NCBI GenBank assembly: GCA_937901165.1
Contig: CALCGS010000031.1
Span: 1-34,896, forward strand
Length of the DNA stretch: 34,896 nucleotides
From: an uncultured Alphaproteobacteria bacterium
GTDB lineage: Bacteria; Pseudomonadota; Alphaproteobacteria; Rs-D84
Direction of reading: 5' to 3'
Shown: piece after piece, positions 17,935-29,321 of the stretch
Layout of the letters: each line of letters opens with the position of its first letter
Position numbering within the stretch: position 1 is the stretch's first letter
Position numbers and translations under genes: made by a program
The notes under the pieces: model-generated
Told to the model about the DNA's origin: nothing
The model's input: the letters and a program-made list of their open reading frames with translations, nothing else
Database searches by the model: none

Positions 17935-18376
17935 TTTTTTCCTCCATCTTGCGTAACACAGAATTCATGGTTTTCAAACTCTGTATTAAATCACGTTCGT
18001 CATCACGCGACATTGTTGAAAATATACCCTCTATTGCATTGTACATACTATCCTTGGCGGCAATGGCAACATCACGCCCATGCGGACTTAAATCGTACCA
18101 TGTATTTCTGCGATCATTTTCATCAATATCACGAACAACCAAACCATCTTTTTCCAACTTTCTAAACAGCATACATAAATTTGGGGTTGGAACCTGTTCC
18201 CGACGCGCAATATCCTTTAATAATGCACGCCCACCAACATATAACCGAATCAATATCGTCAACTGTTGACGCGTATAACCGATCGTACGTGATGGGTCAC
18301 GCTTTATCCTATCCGCCAAACAGTCCAGTATACGGATGTTTTCTTCCATAAGTTTTATAAATTCTTTACGTGCCAT
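17924..18376 (-). CDS. MarR family transcriptional regulator
   Basis: Winged-helix region LTILIRLYVGGRALLKDIARREQVPTPNLCMLFRKLEKDGLVVR. I prefer ATG 18376..18374 (MARKEF), which has a GGGG RBS 5-6 nt upstream, over the TTG at 18394 in the track. Confidence 0.85.
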   Translation of the reverse strand: MARKEFIKLMEENIRILDCLADRIKRDPSRTIGYTRQQLTILIRLYVGGRALLKDIARREQVPTPNLCMLFRKLEKDGLVVRDIDENDRRNTWYDLSPHGRDVAIAAKDSMYNAIEGIFSTMSRDDERDLIQSLKTMNSVLRKMEEKNAK

Positions 18377-18392
18377 TTTTACCCCAGAACTC

Positions 18393-18415
18393 AATCATTA
18401 AACTGTTTAATGATT
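18393..18415. promoter_or_regulatory. perfect 23-bp palindrome, candidate MarR operator
   Basis: AATCATTAAAC-T-GTTTAATGATT lies 17 nt upstream of the marR ATG. It is directly downstream (on the minus strand) of a TATAAT hexamer. Confidence 0.5.
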
Positions 18416-18527
18416 ATTATACTATAATATTTTATTAGGATTTCAAGCAATATTTTTTTATATTTTTACATAAAAAAATTTGCAATCTAAAAAACGACCC
18501 GATTCGCAAATAAAAAATATAAAAATT

Positions 18528-18603
18528 TGGCACCCCCAATGGGAATCGAACCCATGTTGCCAGAATGAGAATCTGATGTCCTGGACCGCTAGACGATGGG
18601 GGC
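18528..18603 (-). tRNA. tRNA-Glu (anticodon CUC)
   Basis: The reverse complement GCCCCCATCGTCTAGCGGTCCAGGACATCAGATTCTCATTCTGGCAACATGGGTTCGATTCCCATTGGGGGTGCCA folds as a cloverleaf. It has a 7-bp acceptor stem, T-loop GGTTCGATTCC, anticodon loop TTCTCAT and an encoded CCA. Confidence 0.9.
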
Positions 18604-18689
18604 ATTTTACGTTTGTATTATTAAAGATTTTTGAATAAATAGCAAATTTATTTTTGCAAAAAACTATTTTTTGTTTATCATAAGTATCA

Positions 18690-19412
18690 ATGTTCAATAT
18701 AAGACATTTTTTTACTAATTTGTTATGTGGTATTATTCCAGGTGCCAGGAATCGTAATACAGTTCGGGCTTTTTGCAATACTAACAACGTTTATAACTTG
18801 CATTTTATACGCAAAAACACGGGATTCAAACATATAAGGATTAAACATTTTGTTGGATATCGTGGGTTGGCACTTACCACATGCGTAAACAATAAATACG
18901 CTTATAAATTTCAAATTAGAAAAATGAATAAAGAATCTTTTGAACGTGAAAAGATTATAACCGATGAATTTAGGAAAATTTCACATCTGTATATACCCAA
19001 AATGGAAATTTTTCCATACGCTGGCAAATTTGTACGCAGATACGAATATATAAACGGCACAACTATTAGAAAAATAAAACCAAAAATTGTAAAAGAAATG
19101 ACCCCCGATTGGGCGCATAGTATTGCAAAATTTTTATTTGAAATTGGAATGTACGACCCGAAATCGTTATACAAATATAAAACCGACAAAAATGCAAAAC
19201 CTGGATACATGTACGGATGGTACCATGGGGATATTTACGATAATTTTATGATAGATAAAAAAACAAATAAAATATTGGCTGTGTTTGATTGGGAAGATGT
19301 GCGTTTTGACGATTTTAGCAATATTTTTCAATCAAAATACCCAGACCAAAACGAATTTATGCAAGCCGTACGCATTGAATACGATAAAATTTATAAAAAA
19401 TCTTGCAAATAA
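18690..19412 (+). CDS. phosphotransferase-enzyme-family (APH/choline-kinase-like) small kinase
   Basis: Catalytic-loop-like HGDIYDNFMID followed by VFDWEDV (metal-binding-like). An N-lobe-like NNKYAYKFQIRK is present. An alternative shorter start exists at ATG 18924. Confidence 0.55.
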   Translation: MFNIRHFFTNLLCGIIPGARNRNTVRAFCNTNNVYNLHFIRKNTGFKHIRIKHFVGYRGLALTTCVNNKYAYKFQIRKMNKESFEREKIITDEFRKISHLYIPKMEIFPYAGKFVRRYEYINGTTIRKIKPKIVKEMTPDWAHSIAKFLFEIGMYDPKSLYKYKTDKNAKPGYMYGWYHGDIYDNFMIDKKTNKILAVFDWEDVRFDDFSNIFQSKYPDQNEFMQAVRIEYDKIYKKSCK

Positions 19413-19449
19413 ATAATTTTTTTATATAATCATTATGTTTTTTAGTTAT

Positions 19450-19523
19450 TGGGGTGTCGTCTAATGGTAGGACAAGAGATTTTGGTTCTCTTTATCATGG
19501 TTCGAATCCGTGCGCCCCAACCA
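19450..19523 (+). tRNA. tRNA-Gln (anticodon UUG)
   Basis: TGGGGTGTCGTCTAATGGTAGGACAAGAGATTTTGGTTCTCTTTATCATGGTTCGAATCCGTGCGCCCCAACCA. The acceptor stem is TGGGGTG/CGCCCCA, the anticodon stem AGAGA/TCTCT with loop TTTTGGT, and the T-loop GGTTCGAATCC. CCA is encoded. Confidence 0.9.
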
Positions 19524-19534
19524 AAATTAAACAA

Positions 19535-19556
19535 TACCCCCAACGGGGTATTTTTT
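19535..19556 (+). terminator. rho-independent terminator of tRNA-Gln
   Basis: TACCCC-CAAC-GGGGTA hairpin followed by TTTTTT. Confidence 0.7.
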
Positions 19557-19563
19557 AATTTTC

Positions 19564-19620
19564 ATGGCGCACGGATACGCCAGAGCGAAGCGCATGGCGA
19601 ATACGCAGATGAACAATTAG
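19564..19620 (+). pseudogene. remnant of the 3' end of a GIY-YIG nuclease gene
   Basis: The 19-codon frame MAHGYARAKRMANTQMNN* shares G-Y-A-x-A-K-R (GGATACGC... at DNA level) with the C-terminus GSGYAFAKRHFWK* of the intact GIY-YIG gene at 20323-20568. About 55 nt downstream it is followed by the same ~105-bp repeat that directly follows the intact gene. The match is short, so this is tentative. Confidence 0.4.
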
Positions 19621-19676
19621 CAACCGCGCAAAAACGGATATTTTTAATTAGAGTTTTTGCCCTGCGGTTGGTTATT

Positions 19677-19780
19677 GTTTATCAAGGTCTCGTACGCATT
19701 CCAGAGAGTAAAACAAATACCCTTTCATCAGTTCGAAAGTCAAATTTCGATTTTTTATCTTTTTAAACACACTTTCGAAC
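19677..19780 (+). repeat. direct repeat A1 (~104 bp) ending in copy 1 of the 50-bp inverted-arm element (arms 19731-19740 / 19771-19780)
   Basis: GTTTATCAAGGTCTCGTACGCATTCCAGAGAGTAAAACAAATAC...GTTCGAAAGT-30 nt-ACTTTCGAAC aligns along its length with 20568-20672. Confidence 0.85.
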
Positions 19781-19801
19781 CAACTTTAAAATAAAAAATT
19801 A

Positions 19802-19829
19802 TTGTATTTACAAATAATTATATTATAAT
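19802..19829 (+). promoter_or_regulatory. candidate sigma70-type promoter for the 111-aa ORF
   Basis: TTGTAT-16 nt-TATAAT lies 22 nt downstream of the 50-bp element. An AAGGA RBS sits 6 nt before the ATG at 19851. Confidence 0.35.
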
Positions 19830-19850
19830 GCGCCCAACAAAGGAAAAATT

Positions 19851-20186
19851 ATGACAATTACAATAATAACAATATGTGGTGACCCGTTTAAGTGGGAATC
19901 AGAAATCACATATCTTGCTGAACGAATGACTTGTTCTGGGAAATATTGTGTTTTAACACCAGTTATTCCGTTTATAAAACATCCACCTGTGGGGGGTATG
20001 TTTACAGCCTCAGAAATAGGTCGTTTAGTTGATGCGCAACGTATAAAGATAAATTTATCGTCGGCAATATTAGTTATGGATACAAACGGTGTCGTTGATG
20101 AAGTAACTCAATGTGAAGTAGCCTATGCGAAAATGAAGAAAAAGCAAATAATGTATTACAGCCAGGAAATACATAATTGGAGATAA
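19851..20186 (+). CDS. hypothetical protein (111 aa); weak resemblance to small Rossmann-like nucleoside 2-deoxyribosyltransferase-like (DUF4406-type) proteins
   Basis: Good RBS. The N-terminal beta-strand-like ITIITICGD and the C-terminal SSAILVMD...DEVTQCEVAYAKMKKKQIMY pattern underlie the weak resemblance. The family assignment is a guess from pattern only. Confidence 0.6.
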   Translation: MTITIITICGDPFKWESEITYLAERMTCSGKYCVLTPVIPFIKHPPVGGMFTASEIGRLVDAQRIKINLSSAILVMDTNGVVDEVTQCEVAYAKMKKKQIMYYSQEIHNWR

Positions 20187-20215
20187 ACTCGCGTTTTGCC
20201 AGCACCCCACAACCA
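20186..20215 (+). repeat. tRNA-3'-end-like motif copy X1 (direct)
   Basis: AACTCGCGTTTTGCCAGCACCCCACAACCA begins on the last base of the ORF111 stop codon. The core matches revcomp of X3 at 18 of 22 positions, and its left part is identical to X2 (AACTCGCGTTT). Confidence 0.7.
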
Positions 20216-20310
20216 CACTTCGCGCCTGCGACGCTTCGTGTGGCGGGCCACACGGACGGAGCAGTTATCGCAAAGTAGTGTCCACCGTAGCCTTGGCGTA
20301 GGCGGACAGG
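20186..20310 (+). ncRNA. candidate structured GC-rich leader / ncRNA upstream of the GIY-YIG gene
   Basis: A strongly GC-enriched stretch of ~125 nt in an AT-rich genome. GTGTGG (20238-20243) can pair either with CCACAC at 20213-20218 or with CCACAC at 20248-20253. A further stem GTCCACC (20280-20286)/GGCGGAC (20301-20307) abuts the AGGAA RBS at 20308-20312. Confidence 0.3.
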
Positions 20311-20322
20311 AATAAAATTTAA

Positions 20323-20568
20323 ATGTTTTATGTATATCTTATAAAAAGCATTTCCCACCCTGAACAAAAATACATCGGTCAAACAGATGATTTGAAACAA
20401 CGGCTAAAGCAACATAATGCAGGATATTCAATACACACAGCAAAATATAAACCATGGGAATTGGTAAATTACTTTGCTTTTACCTCAAAAGATGCAGCAT
20501 TAAAATTTGAACAATATCTTAAAACAGGTTCCGGATACGCATTCGCAAAAAGACATTTTTGGAAATAG
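20323..20568 (+). CDS. small GIY-YIG (URI-domain only, COG2827/UPF0213-like) nuclease family protein
   Basis: 81 aa. YVYLIKS...KYIGQT forms the GIY...YIG strands, followed by LKQRLKQHN and a C-terminal GSGYAFAKRHFW, typical of the stand-alone small GIY-YIG family. Confidence 0.85.
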   Translation: MFYVYLIKSISHPEQKYIGQTDDLKQRLKQHNAGYSIHTAKYKPWELVNYFAFTSKDAALKFEQYLKTGSGYAFAKRHFWK

Positions 20569-20672
20569 TTTATCAAGGCCTCGTGCGCATTCCAGAGAGT
20601 AAAACAAATACTCTTCCGCAAAGTTCGAAAGTCAATTTTTCTATTTTTAACTACTATCTGGCACTTTCGAAC
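20568..20672 (+). repeat. direct repeat A2 (~105 bp) ending in copy 2 of the 50-bp inverted-arm element (arms 20623-20632 / 20663-20672)
   Basis: It starts on the last base of the GIY-YIG stop codon and aligns with 19677-19780. Confidence 0.85.
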
Positions 20673-20770
20673 TTTTTAATACATTGCAAATAGTAGATAT
20701 TGTTTTCGAACTGATAAAAACACTACATTCACAATAAAAACATGCTCTGAATATATTTATCGTTCATTAT

Positions 20771-20792
20771 GGTTGTGGTGTGTGGGCGAAAC
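20771..20792 (-). repeat. tRNA-3'-end-like motif copy X3 (inverted); left arm of a perfect 22-bp inverted repeat
   Basis: GGTTGTGGTGTGTGGGCGAAAC is the exact reverse complement of 21467-21488. Confidence 0.9.
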
Positions 20793-20812
20793 ATTAACAG
20801 TATAAAAATCTT

Positions 20813-21361
20813 TTATCTGGAATTATTTAAAGCAGATTGTGTATTACGAATGCGTTCTTGCAACGCTTTATATTTGAGACGTCCGTTTATTCTCCCATCA
20901 AACCCTTTTCTATGTTCATGGGTGTGCAGGCAAAACCAATCTTGTCGCAAATGAGAAGAAATCATATAAGAAAACTTTTTCAGCACGCGTTCCACAATCG
21001 TTTTATATGTATCAGAAGGCAATAACGTAATACCATTTGTAGCCCTATCACCACCATAATATTTCCATTCTAAAAAAACATCTATTTCATATGGATACGG
21101 TGGCAAACCATTATTGTAAAGTTTAGGATTATAATATTTTTCCCAATATGCACTTAATGCAGAATCTTCCTGTATTCTTTCGTGCAACCAATCTTCGTGG
21201 GATTTCCTGAAATCTGGTGATTCAAGAGTCACAATAGTTTTGTGTAAGGAATTGGAGTTCCAATGTAAAGTAAAAAAATCTGGAGTATTTACTTCTTGTA
21301 CATAATATAACAATTCATAAATGTTATGATAGAATAATTCCCAATCCGGACGTTCTGACAT
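20813..21361 (-). CDS. hypothetical protein (182 aa), His/Trp/Tyr-rich, no family recognised
   Basis: Uninterrupted ORF that fills the segment between the 22-bp inverted repeats. It contains HEDWLHE and HTHEH motifs. Confidence 0.65.
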   Translation of the reverse strand: MSERPDWELFYHNIYELLYYVQEVNTPDFFTLHWNSNSLHKTIVTLESPDFRKSHEDWLHERIQEDSALSAYWEKYYNPKLYNNGLPPYPYEIDVFLEWKYYGGDRATNGITLLPSDTYKTIVERVLKKFSYMISSHLRQDWFCLHTHEHRKGFDGRINGRLKYKALQERIRNTQSALNNSR

Positions 21362-21459
21362 AATATATACCTATATAATTGCTCTCACACTCCCTATTAT
21401 CTAAAGGAAAGTATATATATAAGTTCGATAAAAATCAACATATTATTAACATTGATAAC

Positions 21460-21497
21460 AACTCGCGTTTCGCCCACACACCACAACCAAAATTAAA
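21460..21497 (+). repeat. tRNA-3'-end-like motif copy X2 (direct); right arm of the perfect 22-bp inverted repeat
   Basis: AACTCGCGTTTCGCCCACACACCACAACCAAAATTAAA shares AACCAAAATTAAA with the tRNA-Gln 3' end and flank (19518-19531). Confidence 0.85.
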
Positions 21498-21500
21498 AAA

Positions 21501-21521
21501 ATGCCCGTTGGGGCATTTTTT
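21501..21521 (+). terminator. orphan terminator-like hairpin following X2 (mimics the tRNA-Gln terminator)
   Basis: ATGCCC-GTTG-GGGCAT followed by TTTTTT. It has the same architecture and spacing as 19535-19556, but no plus-strand gene ends here. Confidence 0.5.
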
Positions 21522-21545
21522 ATTTGAAACACAAGGATTTGGCGA

Positions 21546-21595
21546 GTTCGAAAGTCAATTTTTTAATTTTTGTATTCTTATCAGCACTTTCGAAC
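21546..21595. repeat. copy 3 of the 50-bp inverted-arm element
   Basis: GTTCGAAAGT-30 nt-ACTTTCGAAC. A TATAAT hexamer lies about 25 nt downstream. Confidence 0.85.
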
Positions 21596-21669
21596 TACGG
21601 AATTTTGTTTCTGCTGTAAAAGGCTATAATCTGCCATCATTTTTTCCACTTATCTCTTGCCCGATTTCC

Positions 21670-21718
21670 AACAACTCGGCTCGCGAATTGCACAGACAGC
21701 ACAAACAAAAATTAAAAA
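21670..21718 (+). repeat. tRNA-3'-end-like motif copy X4 (direct, degenerate)
   Basis: AACAACTCGGCTCGCGAATTGCACAGACAGCACAAACAAAAATTAAAAA aligns with X2 when a few indels are allowed. Confidence 0.45.
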
Positions 21719-21811
21719 CACCTTTCATAAAGTTCTTTTGTGTGTTTTTTTCACATGCTTTAAAAAGACTTGAAAAAGGTGTATAATCAGTCGACAAAAT
21801 GTGTGAATCAA

Positions 21812-22435
21812 TTATTTCTGTCTTGCAAATAATTTACGTAAAGCGACTGGAATTTTATTATTGTTATTCGGCCATATTTCTTTAATTTTTAAATTCACCA
21901 CAACATCCTGTTCTGGTTTCAACACATCATATCCAGGATAAGTAATCGTATACTCGTTTGAAGCCAATGGATTAACTATCAAACCAATCTTTTTTGCATT
22001 ATATACCCATGGAATAATAACAGCATCAGAACTACAATCATCCATTTTTGGGGCTTTAATACCATTTTGTTCAAAATATGCTATTGCATCTGATTTATAC
22101 GGAACCTTTGTGCATACATATAACACCACTTGACGAGTTGTTTCTTTACCGACAACACCTTTTTTGTATTTAAATGAATCATTTGTATGGTTTAAACTTT
22201 CAAACAAATGTTTTTTCTGTTCTTGTTTTGTCGCTAAAACAGGATCAATTATATAATCACACCGATAAATAGTCAATTTTGTTCCATCTTGATTCAAGGA
22301 TTTATTTTTTGCCAACCACTTTACAAACTCAGCTGCATTTTTAATATCGGATGGAACTAGATAATCTAATGTACCATCATTAATTTTATACTTTGTTTCA
22401 ATAAGATAGTTTTTGCCATTATTATCATATTTCAT
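21812..22435 (-). CDS. hypothetical protein (207 aa from the ATG), distant paralog of the next gene
   Basis: I prefer ATG 22435..22433, which has an AAGGA RBS 7 nt upstream, over the TTG at 22468 in the track. The C-terminal motif LKPEQDVVVNLKIKEIWPNNNNKIPVALRKLF is shared with the 190-aa ORF. Confidence 0.65.
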   Translation of the reverse strand: MKYDNNGKNYLIETKYKINDGTLDYLVPSDIKNAAEFVKWLAKNKSLNQDGTKLTIYRCDYIIDPVLATKQEQKKHLFESLNHTNDSFKYKKGVVGKETTRQVVLYVCTKVPYKSDAIAYFEQNGIKAPKMDDCSSDAVIIPWVYNAKKIGLIVNPLASNEYTITYPGYDVLKPEQDVVVNLKIKEIWPNNNNKIPVALRKLFARQK

Positions 22436-22595
22436 TTTTGCATCCTTATTTTTTATCCGTCCATACAAACAATATAGTATTAAAAAAAAAATAGCAACAG
22501 ATTTATATAAACATTATAATAATTATAAAGCGACGCATCTTTGTGGTGTAATTTATCAGACTCTGATAGTGTTGCACAGATTTGAAAATAATTGC

Positions 22596-22625
22596 AAAAA
22601 GAAAACCCTGTAATTCAGGGTTTTT
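22596..22625 (-). terminator. rho-independent terminator after the 190-aa ORF
   Basis: AAAACCCTG / CAGGGTTTT stem with a 5-nt loop, flanked by T-rich and A-rich runs on both sides. It lies 10 nt from the stop at 22635. Confidence 0.6.
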
Positions 22626-22634
22626 ACATTATTG

Positions 22635-23207
22635 CTATCTTAATATACAATTTTTCCCCTTTAACAACAGATTTGTTAAACCCTTTGGTATCGTACCAAA
22701 ATCAGCATTTTTAGGGTATATTTGACATATATTTGTATCAACAACAATATCTTTTTCATCTAGTGGTCTAAGGTTAAAATAGATTTCATCAGGGTACCAT
22801 TTACCAGATGATAAAATGAACACAGGTGTATTTGTATCGTAAATTTTAGAATAAGGATAAATAAACTTTTTAACATCTTGTGGGTATATTAATTTATTAG
22901 TTGTTGACATAATGAATTTAAATTTTTGTGGATCATAAAAATCGTGTGCTTGTTTTCCACCTTCTTCATAGATGCATATTTTTCTGTAACATTCAAAGCT
23001 GTATGTTTTTTTATCGCGTTGATAAAGATGTGGAATTTTATTACAAAAAATCTTTATTTCTTCTATTTGATTTTCGAGTCCTTTACTTTCTATAGTTTGG
23101 TTTTCCCCAAAACAAGTATCACTTTCTCTATATCTAATATGACCATCATTAGTGTTATGGGTATCAAATGTGCCAATCTTAAATTCAACATCGCTTTTAA
23201 ATATCAT
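22635..23207 (-). CDS. hypothetical protein (190 aa), distant paralog of the preceding gene
   Basis: The C-terminal LRPLDEKDIVVDTNICQIYPKNADFGTIPKGLTNLL aligns with the C-terminus of the 207-aa ORF. Confidence 0.65.
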   Translation of the reverse strand: MIFKSDVEFKIGTFDTHNTNDGHIRYRESDTCFGENQTIESKGLENQIEEIKIFCNKIPHLYQRDKKTYSFECYRKICIYEEGGKQAHDFYDPQKFKFIMSTTNKLIYPQDVKKFIYPYSKIYDTNTPVFILSSGKWYPDEIYFNLRPLDEKDIVVDTNICQIYPKNADFGTIPKGLTNLLLKGKNCILR

Positions 23208-23455
23208 TATTCAATCCTTTGCTAGTCTTTTCCTGAATTTATCACAATTTATTGCAAAAGCAAGTTAGTTTTCTGGTGTTTAATTTTGAACCAAGCAATG
23301 TAATATTCAAATATTTGATTGATTACTACCAATATTTAGTTCTATGAAAAAGATACGTTATTTATACTTGCACATAAATAAAATAACATATAAGACAAAA
23401 AAATACGATTTGAATCCACATGAAATTTATTGTCAATGTTTAATGGTTTCTGTAT

Positions 23456-23476
23456 GGTTCTGGGTGTGTCAGAAAC
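23456..23476 (-). repeat. tRNA-3'-end-like motif copy X6 (inverted, degenerate)
   Basis: GGTTCTGGGTGTGTCAGAAAC compared with X3 GGTTGTGGTGTGTGGGCGAAAC matches at about 16-17 of 22 positions with one indel. Both are preceded by AT. Confidence 0.45.
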
Positions 23477-23638
23477 GAAGAATAACCCAACGAACAAGCA
23501 CAGAAAATATTTCATATTTTGTTTTTCAGAATTTTTTCTTAAATCGGTATTTACATTTTGCGTTTATTTTATAAAAAACCCTGGTAAAAAATTTACTTTT
23601 TATTAAGTTTTTGTTTTAATTTGCAATACCCCAACAGA

Positions 23639-23688
23639 ATTCGAAAGTCAATTTTTCTATTTTTAACTTCTATCTTGCACTTTCGAAC
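23639..23688. repeat. copy 4 of the 50-bp inverted-arm element
   Basis: ATTCGAAAGT-30 nt-ACTTTCGAAC matches copy 2 at 47 of 50 positions. It is preceded by CAATACCCCAAC, which resembles the left half of the tRNA-Gln terminator (CAATACCCCCAAC). Confidence 0.85.
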
Positions 23689-23752
23689 CACTTATAAATG
23701 TATTGCAAGAATCTAATCTTTGTGATAATGATGCAATGAAGAGGTTTTGTGT

Positions 23753-24430
23753 ATGACTGGTATTGAATATATAAAAAACGCTGTTTCTGAATTACTTAAA
23801 AATAATTCTAATGGGCATGATGATAAACACGTATTTCGTGTTTATAATACGGCTTTGAATTTTTGTAACGATATTCCGTCTGCAAATCGTGATTTAGTTG
23901 CCACAACAGCCCTATTGCATGATTGTGATGATTACAAATTATTTGGTGAAGAATCTGAACGTTTATTAATAAACACAAGAAAAATACTAGCCAACACTGA
24001 TTTTAGCAACGATTTTTGTGAAAAATGTATAAACATTATCAAAACAATCGGTTACAGCAAAAGACTACAAGGTATTACACCAGATTGCATAGAAGGTAAA
24101 ATTGTTTCTGATGCAGATATGGCTGATGCATCCGGATTTATTGGTATAATACGTTGTATTGAATATCGCCTTGAAAGAAAAGATCCTTTCTTTGATCCAA
24201 ATTGGTTGCCATGTGAAACAGATGCAAAAACATACAGACAACCTATTTGTTGTCCGGTTGTAAATCATTTATTTGACAAAGGTTTACATTTGCGCGACAT
24301 GGCGTTAACAGAACCTGGTCGTAAATATATAAATGACAAACATCAAATATTAATAAACTTTCTTAAAACTTTTTTTGATGAAGTTGATGCACCACGAATA
24401 TGGTATGATTTATTAAAAAAATACGAATAA
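23753..24430 (+). CDS. HD-domain metal-dependent phosphohydrolase
   Basis: H...KH..RV (HDDKHVFRVYN) and LLHDCDD motifs, with a later SDADMADA. I prefer ATG 23753, which has a GAAGAGG RBS 8 nt upstream, over the TTG at 23747. Confidence 0.8.
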   Translation: MTGIEYIKNAVSELLKNNSNGHDDKHVFRVYNTALNFCNDIPSANRDLVATTALLHDCDDYKLFGEESERLLINTRKILANTDFSNDFCEKCINIIKTIGYSKRLQGITPDCIEGKIVSDADMADASGFIGIIRCIEYRLERKDPFFDPNWLPCETDAKTYRQPICCPVVNHLFDKGLHLRDMALTEPGRKYINDKHQILINFLKTFFDEVDAPRIWYDLLKKYE

Positions 24431-24461
24431 ATAAACCTGCGTTATATTAATAGTATTGTTG

Positions 24462-24512
24462 GCCGTTGCACCACAACTAAATTTTTAACCGGCGGTTTGC
24501 CGGTTGTGTTTT
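24462..24512 (+). repeat. tRNA-3'-end-like motif copy X8 (direct) plus hairpin and T-run; candidate right boundary of the island
   Basis: GCCGTTGCACCACAACTAAATTTTT resembles CCGTGCGCCCCAACCAAAATT of the tRNA. It is followed by an AACCGGC-GGTTT-GCCGGTT hairpin and GTGTTTT. The segment after the HD stop, ATAAACCTGCGTT, matches the left part of X1 and X2. Confidence 0.6.
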
Positions 24513-24514
24513 CA

Positions 24515-24949
24515 TTATTTTCTAGTTTTATCGACCTGTTGTTCACGCCTATGGTAAATATTATTAACAATTTGTATTGCAAGGCTATTCCTGTTGTGGT
24601 GATGAGAAAAACTTGGCGCAGTTTCATACAAAAAACGACCCTGAGCGTCTGATAATTTTAATATATCAGCGGCCGTAATATACAAAACTTCTTCCTCTTT
24701 ATTATCCAAATGAGATATATGTTTTTTTAAATTAATACCATTTATAGCATAAATTTCACGAACAAAATCTATATTACTAATTTTCATTAAATTATCATAC
24801 ATTCCCGGTTTAACGTAGATATACTTACATTCTGCACCATTTGCAACAGTGCTATTAACCGGTTCACTATTAACAATCAAATAACGTAAAAGATTCTTAC
24901 TTTCTTGCATTTTTTGCAATTCTTCGGTTGCTTTACCAAAATTATCCAT
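24515..24949 (-). CDS. hypothetical protein (144 aa)
   Basis: Uninterrupted ORF with GGAGTGAAAAT upstream of its ATG. It is convergent on the hairpin at 24487-24505. No family was recognised. Confidence 0.55.
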   Translation of the reverse strand: MDNFGKATEELQKMQESKNLLRYLIVNSEPVNSTVANGAECKYIYVKPGMYDNLMKISNIDFVREIYAINGINLKKHISHLDNKEEEVLYITAADILKLSDAQGRFLYETAPSFSHHHNRNSLAIQIVNNIYHRREQQVDKTRK

Positions 24950-25077
24950 ATTTTCACTCCTTGTTATATACTTGTTATTTAATTAAATTATACAATAAAT
25001 ATCATGTTTTGTCTAATTTTTTTACAAAAACACATTTTTGTTAATTCAATATTTTTAATTTCTTGCTTTACAAAAAG

Positions 25078-25105
25078 TTGACATTTAAATTTTTTCGACT
25101 ATAAT
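25078..25105 (+). promoter_or_regulatory. near-consensus sigma70 promoter of the lipoprotein gene
   Basis: TTGACA-16 nt-TATAAT. An AAGGA RBS lies 7 nt before the ATG at 25130. Confidence 0.55.
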
Positions 25106-25129
25106 TATTTATAGTTCAAGGATGTTAAA

Positions 25130-26170
25130 ATGAAAAAAAACAAAAACTTGGTCAACTTAAAAAAATATTCTTTTGCTATTTTGGTGGCTGCTGTGTTTTT
25201 TGCAACTTGTGCAAAAATCGAAAAAAACAATAAAATTATAGATAAAGATATAAACACAAAAAAAGAAATACATATAAAAGAACCTATAAAAAAAGCATCA
25301 ACAAGAAACAAATCAAAACAAAATAAAACATATACTGTTGATGCAAATGAAAATTCTCCAATGGATTTTTTACAAAAAAACGACAGTTTATATCAAAATG
25401 CTTATAATAAATATTCTGAACGAATTGGTAAAGATTTTCAATTATCCAACTTCTTTTCACAAAAAGAAATTGACGATTTAAAAAGTATGCTTGCAACAAA
25501 TTCATATAACAATTTAACTTTCTTGGATTCTTGTTCTTATGCCAGAATTATGGCCAACCAAGGTTCTTTGAATGATTTAGCGACTTTTTGGGAATATTTA
25601 GATTATGATTTTATTCAGCAAAACTTTAAAAATAAAATTTCTCCATATTATCAAAAAATAGATTTTTCCGATTCTATTGATATTGATAGTTTGGCGGATA
25701 TGATGTGGGGCGAAAGCGCATATTACGAAGCATTACAATACGATTCTAAAAACACACAAAATGCTTTCTTAAAAGAATTTGATTTAATTGAAAATGCTTG
25801 GGGTGCACGTTATGTCGAAAAACAAATCGACACTTTGAATAAACAACGTGATGAACATTTACAACAATTTAATAACGATTCTGTGCAACAAAAAATCATC
25901 ATCGACAACTATAAACAAAAACAAGATACTCTGGTTCAAAAATTTATTACCAACAATGGTGAATTAAACGCACCTAATTTTAGTATTCCAGAATTTCAAA
26001 ATATAAAAGCAGAATATGTAAAAAATAGTCAGGCAAATAACGATTTGCTTAAACAATATAATTATGAAGATTCTGTCATACATTCCAAAGATTCTATCAA
26101 CAAATGTTTGCCAACTGATTCCGTCAACAAATATTTACCAATAGATTCAATGGTTCAAAAACAAAGATAA
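25130..26170 (+). CDS. putative lipoprotein, Asn/Gln/Lys-rich, unknown function
   Basis: Signal peptide with a lipobox-like FFATC (MKKNKNLVNLKKYSFAILVAAVFFATCAK). It has C-terminal 9-aa tandem repeats. Confidence 0.7.
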   Translation: MKKNKNLVNLKKYSFAILVAAVFFATCAKIEKNNKIIDKDINTKKEIHIKEPIKKASTRNKSKQNKTYTVDANENSPMDFLQKNDSLYQNAYNKYSERIGKDFQLSNFFSQKEIDDLKSMLATNSYNNLTFLDSCSYARIMANQGSLNDLATFWEYLDYDFIQQNFKNKISPYYQKIDFSDSIDIDSLADMMWGESAYYEALQYDSKNTQNAFLKEFDLIENAWGARYVEKQIDTLNKQRDEHLQQFNNDSVQQKIIIDNYKQKQDTLVQKFITNNGELNAPNFSIPEFQNIKAEYVKNSQANNDLLKQYNYEDSVIHSKDSINKCLPTDSVNKYLPIDSMVQKQR

Positions 26171-26173
26171 AAA

Positions 26174-26197
26174 AGTGCCGTAATCGGCACTTTTTTT
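26174..26197. terminator. bidirectional rho-independent terminator between the lipoprotein gene and the MerR gene
   Basis: AGTGCCG-TAAT-CGGCACT, flanked by AAAAA on one side and TTTTTTT on the other. Confidence 0.7.
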
Positions 26198-26570
26198 AAT
26201 TCTTTAACAAACCTTTGATTTCATATAATACAGATAATGCGTCATCTATTTCTTGCAAAGAATTTTTTTGTAATGGTGCATCTGGCATATTATTTGTTCC
26301 AGTTTTATATTGTGCAAAATCACCGTTGCGTAATATCTTTTTCACACCAGCAATCGTCATTCCTTGATTATAAAGCAAATCTTTGATGGCGATTAAATTT
26401 TCAACCGTTTCTTGACGATAATAACGTCGCCCACCCGCACCAGTTGTTGGTTTTATTGCAGTTGGAAATTGCTTTTCCCAATAACGCAAGGTGTATGCAG
26501 GAACATCCAGACGTTTTGATACATCATTGATTGATATAAAATATTCTGTTTTATTTTCCATTGTATACAC
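26196..26570 (-). CDS. MerR family transcriptional regulator
   Basis: N-terminal HTH ISINDVSKRLDVPAYTLRYWEKQF and GGRRYY motif. The start may be Met4 (MENKTEY). Confidence 0.85.
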   Translation of the reverse strand: MYTMENKTEYFISINDVSKRLDVPAYTLRYWEKQFPTAIKPTTGAGGRRYYRQETVENLIAIKDLLYNQGMTIAGVKKILRNGDFAQYKTGTNNMPDAPLQKNSLQEIDDALSVLYEIKGLLKN

Positions 26571-26582
26571 CCTGTTTATTCA

Positions 26583-29321
26583 TTATTCAGCAATTTCTGT
26601 ATTTTCCGTTTCAAGGCTTTCCGCATTTTCTGAATCATCTGAAACAATAGATATTGCAGATACAACCTTTTCATTTTCAGCCGTACGGAACAATGTAACC
26701 CCGGCAGTGCTACGTCCCGCAATTCTTACATCGTTTACAGGCGTACGAATTATTTTTCCACCGTCCGTCACCATTATTATGTCGTGATTTTCAGATACAG
26801 GGAACGAACCAGCAACCGCTGTGTTTTTACCACCAAGTTTTATATTTGTAAATCCATTTCCACCACGATGTGTTGTGCGGTATTCATAAGAACTCGTTCT
26901 TTTGCCAAAACCATTTTCAGATATTGTTAAAATAAATTCTTCGTTTGCCGCCATTTTTTCCATTTGCACAGAATCCAAAACTAAATCTGTCGTTTCTTCT
27001 TCGGCACCCGCTTCTTCTTCGATTCCAGTTGCAGCACGACGCAAAGCACGCGATTGTTTTATGTATGCAGCACGAACAGCACCATCTGTTTCACCATGAT
27101 TTAACATCGCCATACCAATTATTTTATCATCCTTGGCCAATGTTAAACCACGAACACCAGTAGAATTACGTCCCGCAAAAACACGAATTTCTGGAACAGG
27201 GAAACGGATGCAACGACCACGATATGTTGTTAAAAATACATCCTGGTCTTCATTACATGGCAATACAGAAATCAATGTGTCGCCTTCATCCAATTTCATC
27301 GCAATTTTACCGTTTGCACGTATAGAATCAAAATCAGACATACGATTACGACGAACCTCTCCAGATGCAGTTGCAAACATCAAGAAATGTTCCTTGCCAG
27401 ATTCTTGAACACGTTTTACATCTTCATCAGATACCGGCAATATCGCAGTAATTGTTTCGTCTTTTTCAAGTGGTAATAAATTCACCAATGGACGGCCCTT
27501 GGACGATGCAGTTGCTTCTGGTAATTTATATGTTTTGATTTTATAGCATAAACCCTTGGAACTGAAAAACAGTAATGGCGTATGCGTATTTGCAACAAAC
27601 ACCTGAACCACATAATCATCATCCTTGGTCGTCATTGCATTTCTGCCCTTGCCACCACGTTTTTGTGCGCGATATGTATCCAGTGCAACACGTTTAATAT
27701 AACCTGTATTAGATACAGTCACAACCATATCTTCACGTGCGATTAAATCTTCAATATCAATATCAATTTCTGCATCAGATATTTCTGTACGACGCTTTGA
27801 TGACCAGTTATCACGAACAGCCGCAGTTTCTTCACGTATGATTTGAATGATACGTTCATGACTGCCCAAGATGTCAAGCAAATCTTTGATTTGCGCACCC
27901 AAATCTGTCAAATCAGCATGCAATTTTTCACGTTCCAATCCAGTCAAACGATGTAATTGCAATTCCAAGATTGCACGTGCTTGATCTTCGGACATATAAA
28001 ACATCCCATCCTTGTATTCTGTATTTGGATCAGCAATCAATTCTATGTATGATTGTATATCAGATGCCGCCCAACCACGTGATATCAAAGCCGTTCTTGC
28101 TTCATCTGGATTCGAACTGGATTTAATCAATTCAATCACTTCATCCAAATTACCAACCGCAACAGACAACCCCAACAAAGTATGCGCACGATTACGCGCC
28201 TTGTTCAAATCAAATATTGTTCTGCGTCTAATTACTTCTTCACGAAATTCTATGAATGCGTCCAAGACACCACGAATATTAAATAACATTGGACGACCAC
28301 GATTTAACGCCATCATATTCACAGGGAAATTCGTTTGCATTTCTGTATATTGAAACAAATGATTTAACACAACATCAAATATCGCATCACGTTTTAATTC
28401 AATAACAATACGCAACCCCTCCTTGGAAGATTCATCACGAATTTCCGAAATACCCTCAATCCGTTTTTCTTTGGTAAGTTCGGCAATTTTTACAATCATT
28501 TGTGCCTTGTTCACCTGGTAAGGAATTTCATCAACAACGATTGCCTGATGATCGTGTAAAGTTTCCATGTGGGTTTTTGCACGAACAATAATAGAACCAC
28601 GACCGGTTGTATGTGCCTTGTACGCCCCGGCACGCCCCATTATTATAGCCCCAGTTGGAAAATCAGGTCCAGGAATTATATTGAATAATTCATCATCAGA
28701 GATTTCACGATTATCTAAAATTGCAAGAATACCGTTGCAAACTTCACCCAAATTATATGTCGGAACATTTGTCGCCATACCAACAGCAATTCCAGAACCA
28801 CCATTTACCAAGAAATTAGGGAATTTTGTTGGCAAAACAATTGGTTCTTGTAATGTACCATCAAAGTTCGGCTGCCAATCAACAGTATCTTTTTCCATAT
28901 CTTCCATCAAAGATGCACCAAGTTTGGATAGACGTGCCTCTGTATAACGCATAGCAGCAGGTTTATCACCATCACGCGAACCAAAGTTACCCTGACCTTG
29001 GACCAAGGTTTCGCCCATTGAAAAATCCTGGGCCATACGGGCCATAGCCTCGTATATAGAGCTATCACCATGTGGATGGTATTTACCCATAACATCACCA
29101 ACAATACGTGCAGATTTTACAGTCGATTTTGTTGCAGGTGCAACATCGTTCATAACATATAAAATTCGACGATGCACCGGTTTACATCCATCCCTGACGT
29201 CAGGCAATGCACGATCAACAATTACAGACATTGCATAATCTAAAAAACTGGTCCGCATTTCATGTTCCAAAGAAGATTGCGGAACCTTGATTTCATTTAT
29301 TTCATTTGTATTTTCTGACAT
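26583..29321 (-). CDS. gyrA: DNA gyrase subunit A
   Basis: [12 protein letters not shown], the active-site region [10 protein letters not shown], and a C-terminal beta-pinwheel repeat region. Length is 912 aa. Confidence 0.95.

Follow-up and report, generated by a model that had tools for sequence, protein, structure and literature searches.

A 50-bp palindromic element repeated behind tRNA-Gln(ttg) very probably stems from the attachment-site region of large serine recombinase-driven integrative elements

Described systems and the present locus

Among large serine integrases (Listeria A118/LI integrase, Bxb1 and phiC31; zinc-ribbon ZD-motif model in PMC3783163), attP measures about 50 bp and carries inverted motifs at its distal ends, some 16-24 positions from the centre, a layout shared by the palindromic element described here, and further likenesses are the Resolvase, Recombinase and Zn-ribbon architecture of the large serine recombinases (LSRs) involved and the 5-bp offset of the GTTC motif, which is nearer the crossover in attB (here, the tRNA T-loop) than in attP (here, the pseudo-tRNA arm). 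The palindrome differs from such an attP in being left uncut by integration, the crossover lying about 90-105 bp off, in the tRNA CCA end, in falling within the recombinase reading frame, and in having a centre that is not conserved as a site; furthermore, known LSR systems do not require an accessory DNA site, unlike the role proposed below.

Staphylococcal SCC composite islands (Ccr large serine recombinases; 3' end of rlmH) likewise stack cassettes in tandem at a single gene's 3' end, with repeated site sequences demarcating the cassettes and many units devoid of their own recombinase (ccr-less pseudo-SCC), but the target here is a tRNA end and not rlmH, the units are single-gene ones of 0.2-3 kb, and each joint holds a relic of the recombinase tail along with the palindrome. 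The resemblance to integron attC/CALIN arrays consists in single-gene cassettes lying in a row between imperfect inverted repeats with conserved ends and a variable middle, and in the possible absence of a nearby recombinase; here, however, there is no tyrosine integron integrase, L'/L'' pairing and extrahelical bases are both absent, the ends are GTTC...GAAC and not ...AAC/GTT..., the array is tRNA-anchored, and its joints also hold a pseudo-tRNA end and a terminator.

The sis recombinational enhancer, situated in the 5' portion of the small hin/gin invertase genes, is a cis-acting accessory element whose two protein-binding sites stand at a fixed spacing and are bound by the host Fis; the palindrome would similarly be a putative two-site accessory element embedded in serine recombinase coding sequence, but its arms follow the recombinase lineage in their sequence and are also found in phyla that lack Fis. 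In SSV1-type integrases and mycobacteriophage integration-dependent immunity, attP lies within a gene whose product is changed by integration, and attP here similarly falls in the 3' end of the element's own gene (LSR), so that the C-terminal tail of the LSR differs between the integrated and excised forms; those systems, however, employ tyrosine integrases and have no counterpart of the 50-bp palindrome.

Four copies of the palindrome in a cassette array

Within the window (the whole stretch of 34,896 nt analyzed), GTTCGAAAGT-N30-ACTTTCGAAC occurs on the + strand three times with zero mismatches (copies 1 to 3) and a fourth time with A replacing the first G (Table 1), as the earlier note had reported, whereas 100 dinucleotide-preserving shuffles yielded 0 matches. 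That note had called the 30-bp spacer invariant, which is true of its length in all four copies, but its sequence varies, and the arm spacing in relatives is 28-31; copies 2 and 4, described as matching at 47 of 50 positions, are indeed nearly identical and share 93% identity over 54 nt, and copies 1 and 4 do precede ORF111 and the HD-domain gene, respectively. The T-loop heptamer GTTCGAA is present in the arms, as had been noticed, and is meaningful; that remark and the one that both arms face the same side of the helix pointed in a useful direction.

Table 1. Features of the array in window coordinates
Feature	Position	Strand	Basis	Remarks
tRNA-Gln(ttg), cassette-array anchor (attB side)	19450..19523	+	ARAGORN, Rfam	LSR stop region overlaps the same tRNA-Gln antisense in relatives
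Intrinsic terminator behind tRNA	19533..19552	+	Terminator scan
D3 flank (3' flank of decayed GIY-YIG module), into copy 1	19668..19724	+	57-nt direct repeat	89% identity to 20559-20615; D3-type flank also precedes the element in G033, G007, G036, G129
Palindromic element copy 1	19731..19780	.	Pattern match	Spacer type common to G090, G157, G149, G102
Cargo ORF111, no Pfam hit	19851..20186	+
Pseudo-tRNA end 1, attP-left type arm ending CAACCA	20186..20215	+	Repeat family D2	Form as in attR arms of LSR islands
GIY-YIG gene, 81 aa	20323..20568	+	Pfam PF01541, E = 2.7e-16
D3 flank, into copy 2	20559..20615	+	Direct repeat
Palindromic element copy 2	20623..20672	.	Pattern match	98% identity to G134
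Inverted pseudo-tRNA end	20763..20792	-	Inverted repeat I1 (30 nt, 93% complementary)	Brackets ORF182 together with 21467-21496
Cargo ORF182, no Pfam hit	20813..21361	-
Pseudo-tRNA end 2	21460..21489	+	Repeat families D2 and D4
Terminator hairpin of stereotyped boundary	21496..21521	.	Terminator scan and boundary architecture	Scored on - strand; palindromic, T-flanked at both sides
Conserved ~25-nt flank, terminator to element	21522..21545	+	Boundary comparison	Form recurs in about 18 LSR-less copies across several tRNA loci and species
Palindromic element copy 3	21546..21595	.	Pattern match
Pseudo-tRNA end 3	21678..21707	+	Repeat family D2	Resembles L035:13851
Cargo ORF218 and ORF190, no Pfam hit	21812..23207	-
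Degenerate 25-nt-type flank before copy 4	23607..23638	+	Anchor motif scan
Palindromic element copy 4	23639..23688	.	Pattern match	Right 12 nt of spacer identical to those of an LSR-coding lineage
HD-domain gene	23747..24430	+	Pfam PF01966

About 12 copies, the window's four included, are present in the whole genome (Candidatus Enterousia, 0.92 Mb), others being found at C32:6395 and 7316, at C46:1239, 2241 and 3272, at C135:61 and on C84 (near 1924-1973), with a variant copy at C16:15317. Wherever a tRNA is present on the contig, every copy lies behind it (Gln-ttg, Gln-ctg, Glu-ttc or Tyr-like). No published description of such an element was found in the literature.

LSR-less units have a stereotyped boundary in common, keeping the 25-nt flank and the arms, with terminator stems differing in a compensated way. 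Their cargo genes adjoin the right arm, 15 of them on the + strand and 11 on the -, and start or end a few to 60 nt from it. The HD-domain gene lies directly behind an element in G007, G011 and G001 (in G011, the order is left flank, element and HD gene, versus left flank, copy 3, 2 kb, copy 4 and HD gene in the window), which makes the units to the left of copy 4 extra in this genome, and G036 has a single element in place of copies 1 and 2.

The element within recombinase genes and integration at tRNA ends

LSR homologues (domains Resolvase, Recombinase and Zn_ribbon_recom) are present in 75 of the 257 genomes of the genus, and at 29 of the 30 best loci in related genomes, the 50-bp element lies within the 3' end of the LSR gene, where translation has the arms encoding SSKV and LSN in frame and the spacer EQKRALLNLL. 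The best loci show a fixed distance of about 81 nt between the element and a convergent tRNA (Gln, Pro, Met or Tyr, to which more divergent LSR loci add His, Arg, Asn and Glu), the 3' end of which overlaps the LSR stop, the last ~17-20 LSR codons being the antisense of the tRNA 3' end. At 45 of 80 LSR loci across phyla in a genome-collection survey, the palindrome and a convergent tRNA are 78-85 nt apart, the arms matching at no fewer than 9 of 10 positions in 39 of those 45. In the genome studied here, the copy at C32:7316 sits in a remnant 86.5% identical to an LSR tail (E = 3.5e-21), and C16 and C84 carry remnants too; no LSR body remnant was found beside the window's four copies. The 50-bp element thus very probably originates in the attachment-site region of LSR-driven integrative elements, and, as no intact matching LSR gene was found in this assembly, the array is now probably immobile unless an LSR is supplied in trans.

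One LSR lineage (90% identical) has members at tRNA-Gln ttg as well as, in other genomes, at tRNA-Gln ctg, its homology extending through the element and 81 nt to CCCCAACCA. At least 10 islands of 4.7-15 kb have attR pseudo-tRNA arms followed by native terminators, and empty sites are seen in four genomes (G033, G129, G019 and G006), with the GIY-YIG module directly after the real tRNA-Gln CCA. Such empty sites and attL/attR pairs show, by comparison, that LSR islands of 4.7-15 kb integrate at the tRNA CCA end, the crossover falling within CAACCA and a pseudo-tRNA arm remaining at the island's far end. Metagenome and viral collections yielded no excised circle junction.

In all seven islands read, the GTTC motif lies 24 nt from the real tRNA end versus 29 nt from that of the pseudo-tRNA arm, and the ZD motif of LI integrase shows a 5-bp shift between attB and attP (PMC3783163); on sequence grounds, the former offset, T-loop versus pseudo-tRNA arm, is this very shift. 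Main-lineage islands hold exactly three AGTTCGAAA motifs, namely, the attP-left arm and both palindrome arms, the latter at positions 16-25 from the centre, and the geometry of the palindrome is that of an attP.

The window is best read, in part from what is shown and in part from what we infer, as a row of LSR-less cassette boundaries from serial tRNA-Gln insertions. The LSR gene of an intact element converges on the tRNA with the palindrome inside its reading frame, and the four copies would represent LSR-less units stacked behind tRNA-Gln(ttg), each in the order of pseudo-tRNA end, terminator, ~25-nt flank, palindrome and small cargo gene, these being either joints left by successive insertions or units mobilised through them. 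A duplicated att arm was the closest of the options offered earlier, as one palindrome copy would arrive per inserted unit, but the palindrome is not the crossover itself, since most LSR islands carry a single copy, which is intact. The LSR zinc-ribbon domain might recognise its two arms as P-type binding motifs, each set 25 bp from the centre, and the palindrome would then be a symmetric pseudo-attP to which an LSR dimer binds in cis. It would serve an extended attP in an accessory or regulatory capacity, with the crossover itself lying elsewhere. Such a cis-acting LSR-binding role is suggested only tentatively, whereas the explanation as a whole (LSR attachment-site origin, serial insertion and pseudo-attP function) seems somewhat more probable than its negation.

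Arm symmetry and competing explanations

Among 51 LSR-linked copies drawn from several phyla, 93.4% of arm cells pair, both sides change in 7 of the 11 arm pairs, and 55 double-change cells are observed versus 14 +/- 3 in shuffles (0 of 500 reaching 55), while an inner candidate helix, used as a control, displays no covariation. The outer GTTC/GAAC is invariant in 47-51 of the 51 copies, and arm symmetry is maintained despite amino-acid changes (KS to EQ or QG) and where the frame differs (LSN to FRT). In these alignments, selection is shown to act on the element as a double-stranded DNA palindrome across LSR lineages and phyla. A ZD reading mainly GTTC does not by itself explain the arm symmetry, the inner five or six arm positions covarying mutually and not with the attP-left arm or the invariant T-loop; the symmetry might alternatively be kept up by quasi-palindrome correction through template switching, or by a need for a hairpin. 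Mismatched arm states (A.A and T.T) persist across several species in an LSR-less family behind tRNA-Glu(ttc), and truncated copies exist (e.g., L194 and L196), which argues that the constraint in LSR-less copies is weak or absent.

That same covariation, strong and symmetrical at inner positions that neither the T-loop nor the attP-left arm follows, would also suit a nucleic-acid stem as the selected feature (a hairpin formed by the LSR mRNA or its antisense RNA, or a DNA hairpin/cruciform) with a role in mRNA stability/processing, LSR translation control or recognition by a structure-specific nuclease, and the arms, if single-stranded, do fold stably at -9 to -19 kcal/mol (z-scores -2.2 to -4.0), the stem growing to 12-13 bp in a lineage-specific manner. 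Such a stem is nevertheless unlikely: the non-Watson-Crick cells (17 G.U on the + strand and 11 on the -, versus 26 other) indicate no RNA-strand bias, the four central variable pairs (columns 17-20) lack + strand G.U intermediates, pairing alone does not need the GTTC/GAAC invariance, the 24-30 nt loop has no conserved structure, and LSR-less copies are often outside any transcript of fixed orientation.

The attP-like 50-bp geometry, the cargo boundaries so near the right arm and the G011 and G036 polymorphisms, which resemble element-by-element events, might instead suggest that the palindrome is itself a recombination site, at which an LSR acting in trans recombines element with element and moves cassettes in and out as at integron attC. 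We consider this distinctly improbable, as the LSR islands with their one intact copy are bounded by a tRNA end and a pseudo-tRNA arm and not by half elements, the spacer centre is unconserved, coding and without dyad symmetry, and serial tRNA-end insertion plus deletion between 50-110 bp direct repeats can give the same polymorphisms.

The earlier note also saw promoter-like hexamers after each copy and offered an operator for cassette promoters, i.e., a site for a host or cassette transcription regulator of promoters just downstream, and some + strand cargo genes (C32:6395, L015, L023) do have TATAAT 4-10 nt past the right arm and start 23-60 nt past it, and the -35 region would lie beneath a protein bound to the right arm. 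The hexamers, however, are at chance level (23 sigma-70-like sites at 19400-24000 versus 25.3 +/- 4.9 in shuffles), 11 of 26 neighbour genes are on the opposite strand and end at the element, the same element form lies inside LSR coding sequence in many phyla, the arm sequence tracks the LSR lineage within one genus in a way not accounted for by a host factor, and the -10-like box is accounted for by the hydrophobic codons after SS in the LSR, all of which leaves an operator very improbable. A miniature transposable element (MITE/REP) with 10-bp terminal inverted repeats, the remaining earlier suggestion, would fit the short inverted termini and the several copies per genome but is scarcely credible, as target-site duplications were not found at the element copies, all ~12 of which belong to arrays anchored on a tRNA and follow a fixed left flank, and as the element forms in-frame LSR coding sequence in intact elements.

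Repeat arrays behind tRNA genes

The 50-bp repeat described in the earlier note proved to be real: the pattern GTTCGAAAGT-N30-ACTTTCGAAC is found four times on the + strand of the window (the copy at 23639 having its first G replaced by A) and is absent from all 100 shuffles of the sequence, and the near-identity of copies 2 and 4 was likewise borne out by repeat comparison. The promoter-like hexamers said to follow the copies did not hold up, the 23 sigma-70-like sites found being no more than chance would supply (25.3 ± 4.9 in shuffles). The copies fall within a low-GC stretch (19.5-26.5 kb) bounded by tRNA-Gln(ttg) and gyrA, the small ORFs of which mostly lack a Pfam match, with the exception of an 81-aa GIY-YIG gene and an HD-domain gene. 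A genome-wide count gave about 12 copies in the genome to which the window belongs (0.92 Mb in 145 contigs), and exact 9+9 arms at a spacing of 26-34 were present in 116 of the 328 genomes of the order, nearly all of them from this genus.

Almost every copy shows the same left-hand context, which consists, in order, of a tRNA or pseudo-tRNA 3' end (...CCA), an intrinsic terminator, a conserved stretch of ~25 nt (tttgttttcYaataYtttcaccga) and the element itself. The copies sit behind a tRNA gene and point away from its 3' end, the arrays extending from tRNA-Gln(ttg), tRNA-Gln(ctg) or tRNA-Glu(ttc), and this tRNA-anchored architecture, with pseudo-tRNA ends as unit borders as in the window, was seen at no fewer than 20 loci.

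Coordinates of the element copies and associated features (C, other contigs of the same genome; G, related genomes; L, loci compared)
Feature	Position	Remark
tRNA-Gln(ttg)	window 19450-19523	start of the window array
Element copy 1	window 19731-19780, +
Element copy 2	window 20623-20672, +
Element copy 3	window 21546-21595, +
Element copy 4	window 23639-23688, +
Pseudo-tRNA ends	window 20186, 21460, 21678
Inverted pseudo-tRNA end	window 20763
Inverted repeat around ORF182	window 20763-20792 / 21467-21496	30 nt, 93% complementary
GIY-YIG gene and leader	window 20216-20568	also L031, L039, L187, L192
Element copies	C32:6395, C32:7316	behind tRNA-Gln(ctg)
Element copies	C46:1239, 2241, 3272	behind tRNA-Glu(ttc); arm variant GTTCGTAAGT/AyTTACGAAC
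Element copy	C135:61
Element copy	C84	behind Tyr-like tRNA
Element copy	C16:15317	variant
Element copies	G011 9416, 10300
Small serine recombinase genes	C116:6621-7202, C69:5524-6108	~195 aa
Region similar to the LSR family	C86:2027-2893
tRNA terminator overprinted on LSR codons	L035:8096-8135	equivalent places in other LSR loci
LSR with differing tails	L035:8028-9563, L035:12627-12812
Gene for HUH-like protein	L035:10855-11364, L086:5641-6156	~170 aa
AAA-type ATPase genes	L089:2483-3817, L086:2568-3758	Walker A motif

The palindrome in a recombinase gene and integration at the tRNA end

In two related genomes (G133 and G004), an opposite-strand gene of 511-548 aa crosses the first element and ends within the tRNA gene, antisense to it, and the Resolvase, Recombinase and Zn_ribbon_recom domains (Pfam) of its product identify it as a large serine recombinase (LSR). 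Homologues were found in 75 of the 257 genomes of the genus; among the 30 best loci, 29 have the element at one fixed position near the 3' end of the LSR gene (codons ~448-464), 81 nt from a convergent tRNA (Gln, Pro, Met or Tyr), the more divergent loci featuring tRNAs for His, Arg, Asn and Glu. Read in the LSR frame, the two arms translate to SSKV and LSN and the spacer to EQKRALLNLL. The tRNA terminator, too, shares its DNA with LSR codons on the opposite strand: the two halves of its hairpin stem are the NG and KPF codons, with KPF as the descending one.

No remnant of an LSR body was found beside the four copies of the window, where tblastn with 21 LSRs matched only the tRNA antisense. 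The C32:7316 copy lies within a remnant 86.5% identical to an LSR tail (E = 3.5e-21), and further LSR remnants are present on C16 and C84. Very probably the palindrome began as a piece of the recombinase tail and was carried along whenever a unit inserted at the tRNA end. The spacer of copy 4 is identical to that of an LSR lineage over its right 12 nt and not over its left 18 nt, which a mosaic breakpoint and uneven decay would fit equally well. The two small serine recombinases encoded in the same genome (C116 and C69) are 54% and 41% identical to one inside the G133 island, and the C86 region, which weakly resembles the LSR family in its N-terminal and recombinase domains (25%, E = 5e-12), may represent a further serine recombinase or else a pseudogene.

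Members of one LSR lineage, 90% identical, occupy tRNA-Gln(ttg) in two genomes (G004 and G110) and tRNA-Gln(ctg) in another four. Their homology spans the LSR body, the element and 81 nt up to CCCCAACCA and is interrupted only at the tRNA-specific GTGCG/AGCTG segment, so that the LSR takes both the element and the 81 nt along when it moves. The far ends of at least 10 islands (4.7-15 kb) are 29-nt pseudo-tRNA arms (e.g., GTTCGAAATTCGTTTGCTATCGTCAACCA), each followed by a native tRNA terminator, while at the empty site in four genomes (G033, G129, G019 and G006) the real tRNA-Gln is fused to the GIY-YIG leader that stands behind the pseudo-arm in G004 and the window, and most LSR islands hold a single intact palindrome. 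Taken together, these observations place the crossover within CAACCA(AGA), the core common to both tRNA ends, and leave the palindrome unsplit: the island junctions are made up of a tRNA end and a pseudo-tRNA arm, and a model in which LSR islands recombine at the centre of the palindrome is rejected, given their single intact copy. The excised attP junction (pseudo-tRNA arm joined to LSR tail) had no match in metagenome contigs, searched with two patterns, or in viral contigs, searched with one.

As attP lies within the LSR frame, the last ~20 residues of the LSR differ between the integrated and the excised form; the former has a tail of tRNA-antisense codons (...SWLGRTDSNHDKENQNLLSYH), the latter would end in ...SWLTIVNEFRTTYYND..., and this change of tail could let integration itself switch the recombinase. 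A protein of ~170 aa encoded by several islands carries an HUH-like motif (HMHILIKD) and weakly matches Pfam REP_ORF2-G2P (E = 1.6e-4, which falls short of the curated cutoff); excised islands may replicate. Other island cargo includes AAA-type ATPases, which bear a possible resemblance to abortive-infection or OLD-like defence genes.

Symmetry of the arms and possible binding by the recombinase

The arms differ between LSR lineages yet stay reverse complements of each other (left/right pairs GTTCGAAAGT/ACTTTCGAAC, GTTCAAAAGT/ACTTTTGAAC, GTTCGAAAAT/ATTTTCGAAC, GTTCGAACTT/AAGTTCGAAC, GTTCGAGGT/ACCTCGAAC, GTTCGGAAG/CTTCCGAAC, GTTCCCAAGT/ACTTGGGAAC and GTTCGATAA/TTATCGAAC, as well as GTTCTGAAGT/ACTTCAGAAC and GTTCGCAAA/TTTGCGAAC in Patescibacteria and Elusimicrobia). 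Across an alignment of 51 distinct LSR-linked copies, 93.4% of the cells pair and seven of the 11 pairs change on both sides, with 55 double-change cells vs. 14 ± 3 in shuffles (0 of 500 reaching 55), although these counts do not represent independent events, the 51 sequences being related; the signal is lost when the partner columns are slid. The arm changes alter the protein (SSKV to SSEV, SSQV or SSNF; LSN to LQN, LGN or LLN), a 29-nt spacer even shifts the frame, turning LSN into FRT with GAAC nonetheless kept, and the outer GTTC/GAAC is invariant or nearly so, a pattern that points to selection on the arms acting on DNA and not on protein. The non-Watson-Crick cells (17 of the G.U type on the + strand, 11 on the - strand and 26 other) lack the wobble bias of a one-strand RNA helix, which points to a double-stranded DNA feature.

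The zinc-ribbon domain (ZD) of LI integrase recognises a 9-bp motif that occupies positions 16-24 in either half of attP and is found 5 bp nearer the centre in attB (PMC3783163). The same 5-bp shift is seen here: GTTC starts 24 nt before the real tRNA ends, within the T-loop, and 29 nt before the pseudo-tRNA arm ends in each of the seven islands read (six lineages), which puts the central dinucleotide at the AA of CAACCA. The islands of the main lineage contain exactly three AGTTCGAAA motifs, namely the attP-left arm and both palindrome arms, and the palindrome has the geometry of an attP (~50 bp, inverted distal motifs, arms at positions 16-25 from the centre), its arms beginning 25 bp from the centre, in the P-type register, on both sides. 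Based on the shift, the three motifs and the register, binding of the palindrome by an LSR dimer is proposed, and we would tentatively regard it as a possible accessory or regulatory pseudo-attP.

The inner arm positions nevertheless covary only with each other, no covariation with the attP-left arm having been found, and the arms vary independently of the T-loop of the neighbouring tRNA, which also rules them out as its mimic. A ZD reading mainly GTTC fails to explain the symmetry. The main rival to an LSR-binding role, according to which a stem is required or the symmetry is upheld by template switching (template-switch correction of quasi-palindromes being a known process), could explain it; the mutual covariation and the ability of the arms to fold when single-stranded speak for a stem, the missing wobble bias against one. 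A regulator operator is disfavoured: cargo genes adjoin the right arm in both orientations (15 on the + strand, beginning 23-60 nt past it, and 11 on the - strand), and promoter-like sites are no commoner than expected by chance. The integron attC was rejected as well: its R''/L''...L'/R' pairing with extrahelical bases is absent, the outer arms alone pair, a candidate inner A/U helix of the spacer shows no covariation, and the recombinase linked to the element is a serine enzyme, whereas the hallmark of attC is a tyrosine integron integrase. A structured RNA family (no Rfam match at the element even at E <= 1 in a scan of 18000-27000, no wobble bias), an intrinsic terminator (loop of 24-30 nt, no T run after the right arm, real terminators upstream) and a MITE/REP (flanks without target duplication, every copy in tRNA-anchored arrays) can be dismissed.

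Recombinase-less cassettes and the spread of the family

LSR-less units have one stereotyped boundary, comprising a pseudo-end, core, terminator, 25-nt flank and palindrome, in which the terminator stems vary by compensated changes and the flank and arms are conserved. That cargo adjoins the right arm in both orientations suggests that the palindrome is the final part of a cis region that LSR-less cassettes must keep. Truncated copies (L194, L196) and mismatched arm states persisting in the tRNA-Glu(ttc) family indicate that many LSR-less copies are decaying. That the palindrome is an obligatory second LSR-binding site, with an attP extended to ~165 bp that includes it as a symmetric pseudo-attP of the P type, seems rather unlikely; if it were, any small segment keeping the pseudo-tRNA arm through the palindrome could be mobilised in trans, the arrays would be a serine-recombinase counterpart of the integron, that is, a gene-capture platform at tRNA gene ends common to reduced-genome Alphaproteobacteria, Patescibacteria, Elusimicrobia and others, and the end of the recombinase gene would serve at the same time to join the cassettes.

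A cross-phylum scan (one genome per species) found 354 LSR relatives, of which 80 were kept; a convergent tRNA ends 78-85 nt from the palindrome in 45 of these 80, and the arms match at nine or more of 10 positions in 39 of those 45, the hosts in the scan including Micavibrio, Rickettsiales, Saccharibacteria, other Patescibacteria, Peribacteria, Elusimicrobia and Ignavibacteria. Serine integrases are valued for their short sites and for needing no accessory DNA, and we know of no reputation of theirs for targeting tRNA genes; in the literature on tRNA-targeting serine integrases, Enterousia and Saccharibacteria, neither integrases ending inside tRNA genes nor the palindrome were found described. 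The family is unusual in targeting the universal T-loop and CCA end of tRNA genes, in keeping attP within its own reading frame, and in having an additional, attP-shaped palindrome that stays symmetric at the cost of protein sequence. Should the palindrome work as a site, it would give large serine integrases their first accessory site and would account for the pile-up of recombinase-less single-gene cassettes downstream of tRNA genes in tiny genomes. For annotation, such arrays can be recognised by GTTC-N6-N28-30-N6-GAAC following the terminator of a tRNA.

As for the history of the window, the HD gene directly follows an element in G007, G011 and G001, the left flank of copy 3 is joined via a single element to the HD gene in G011, and one element takes the place of copies 1 and 2 in G036, so that the units between tRNA-Gln and copy 4 were either added here or lost in the others. 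ORF182 is bracketed by an inverted repeat of pseudo-tRNA ends, and the same right-flank module, ending in an inverted pseudo-end, follows two different elements in G134. The GIY-YIG gene, with its GC-rich leader of ~100 nt, begins immediately behind the real tRNA-Gln's CCA in several relatives and behind a pseudo-tRNA end in the window and G004; it behaves like a small module of its own, set between tRNA end and element. The distance between successive elements is often 0.86-1.03 kb despite differing cargo (e.g., copies 1-3 of the window and those of C32, C46 and G011), which suggests a preferred minimal cassette size.
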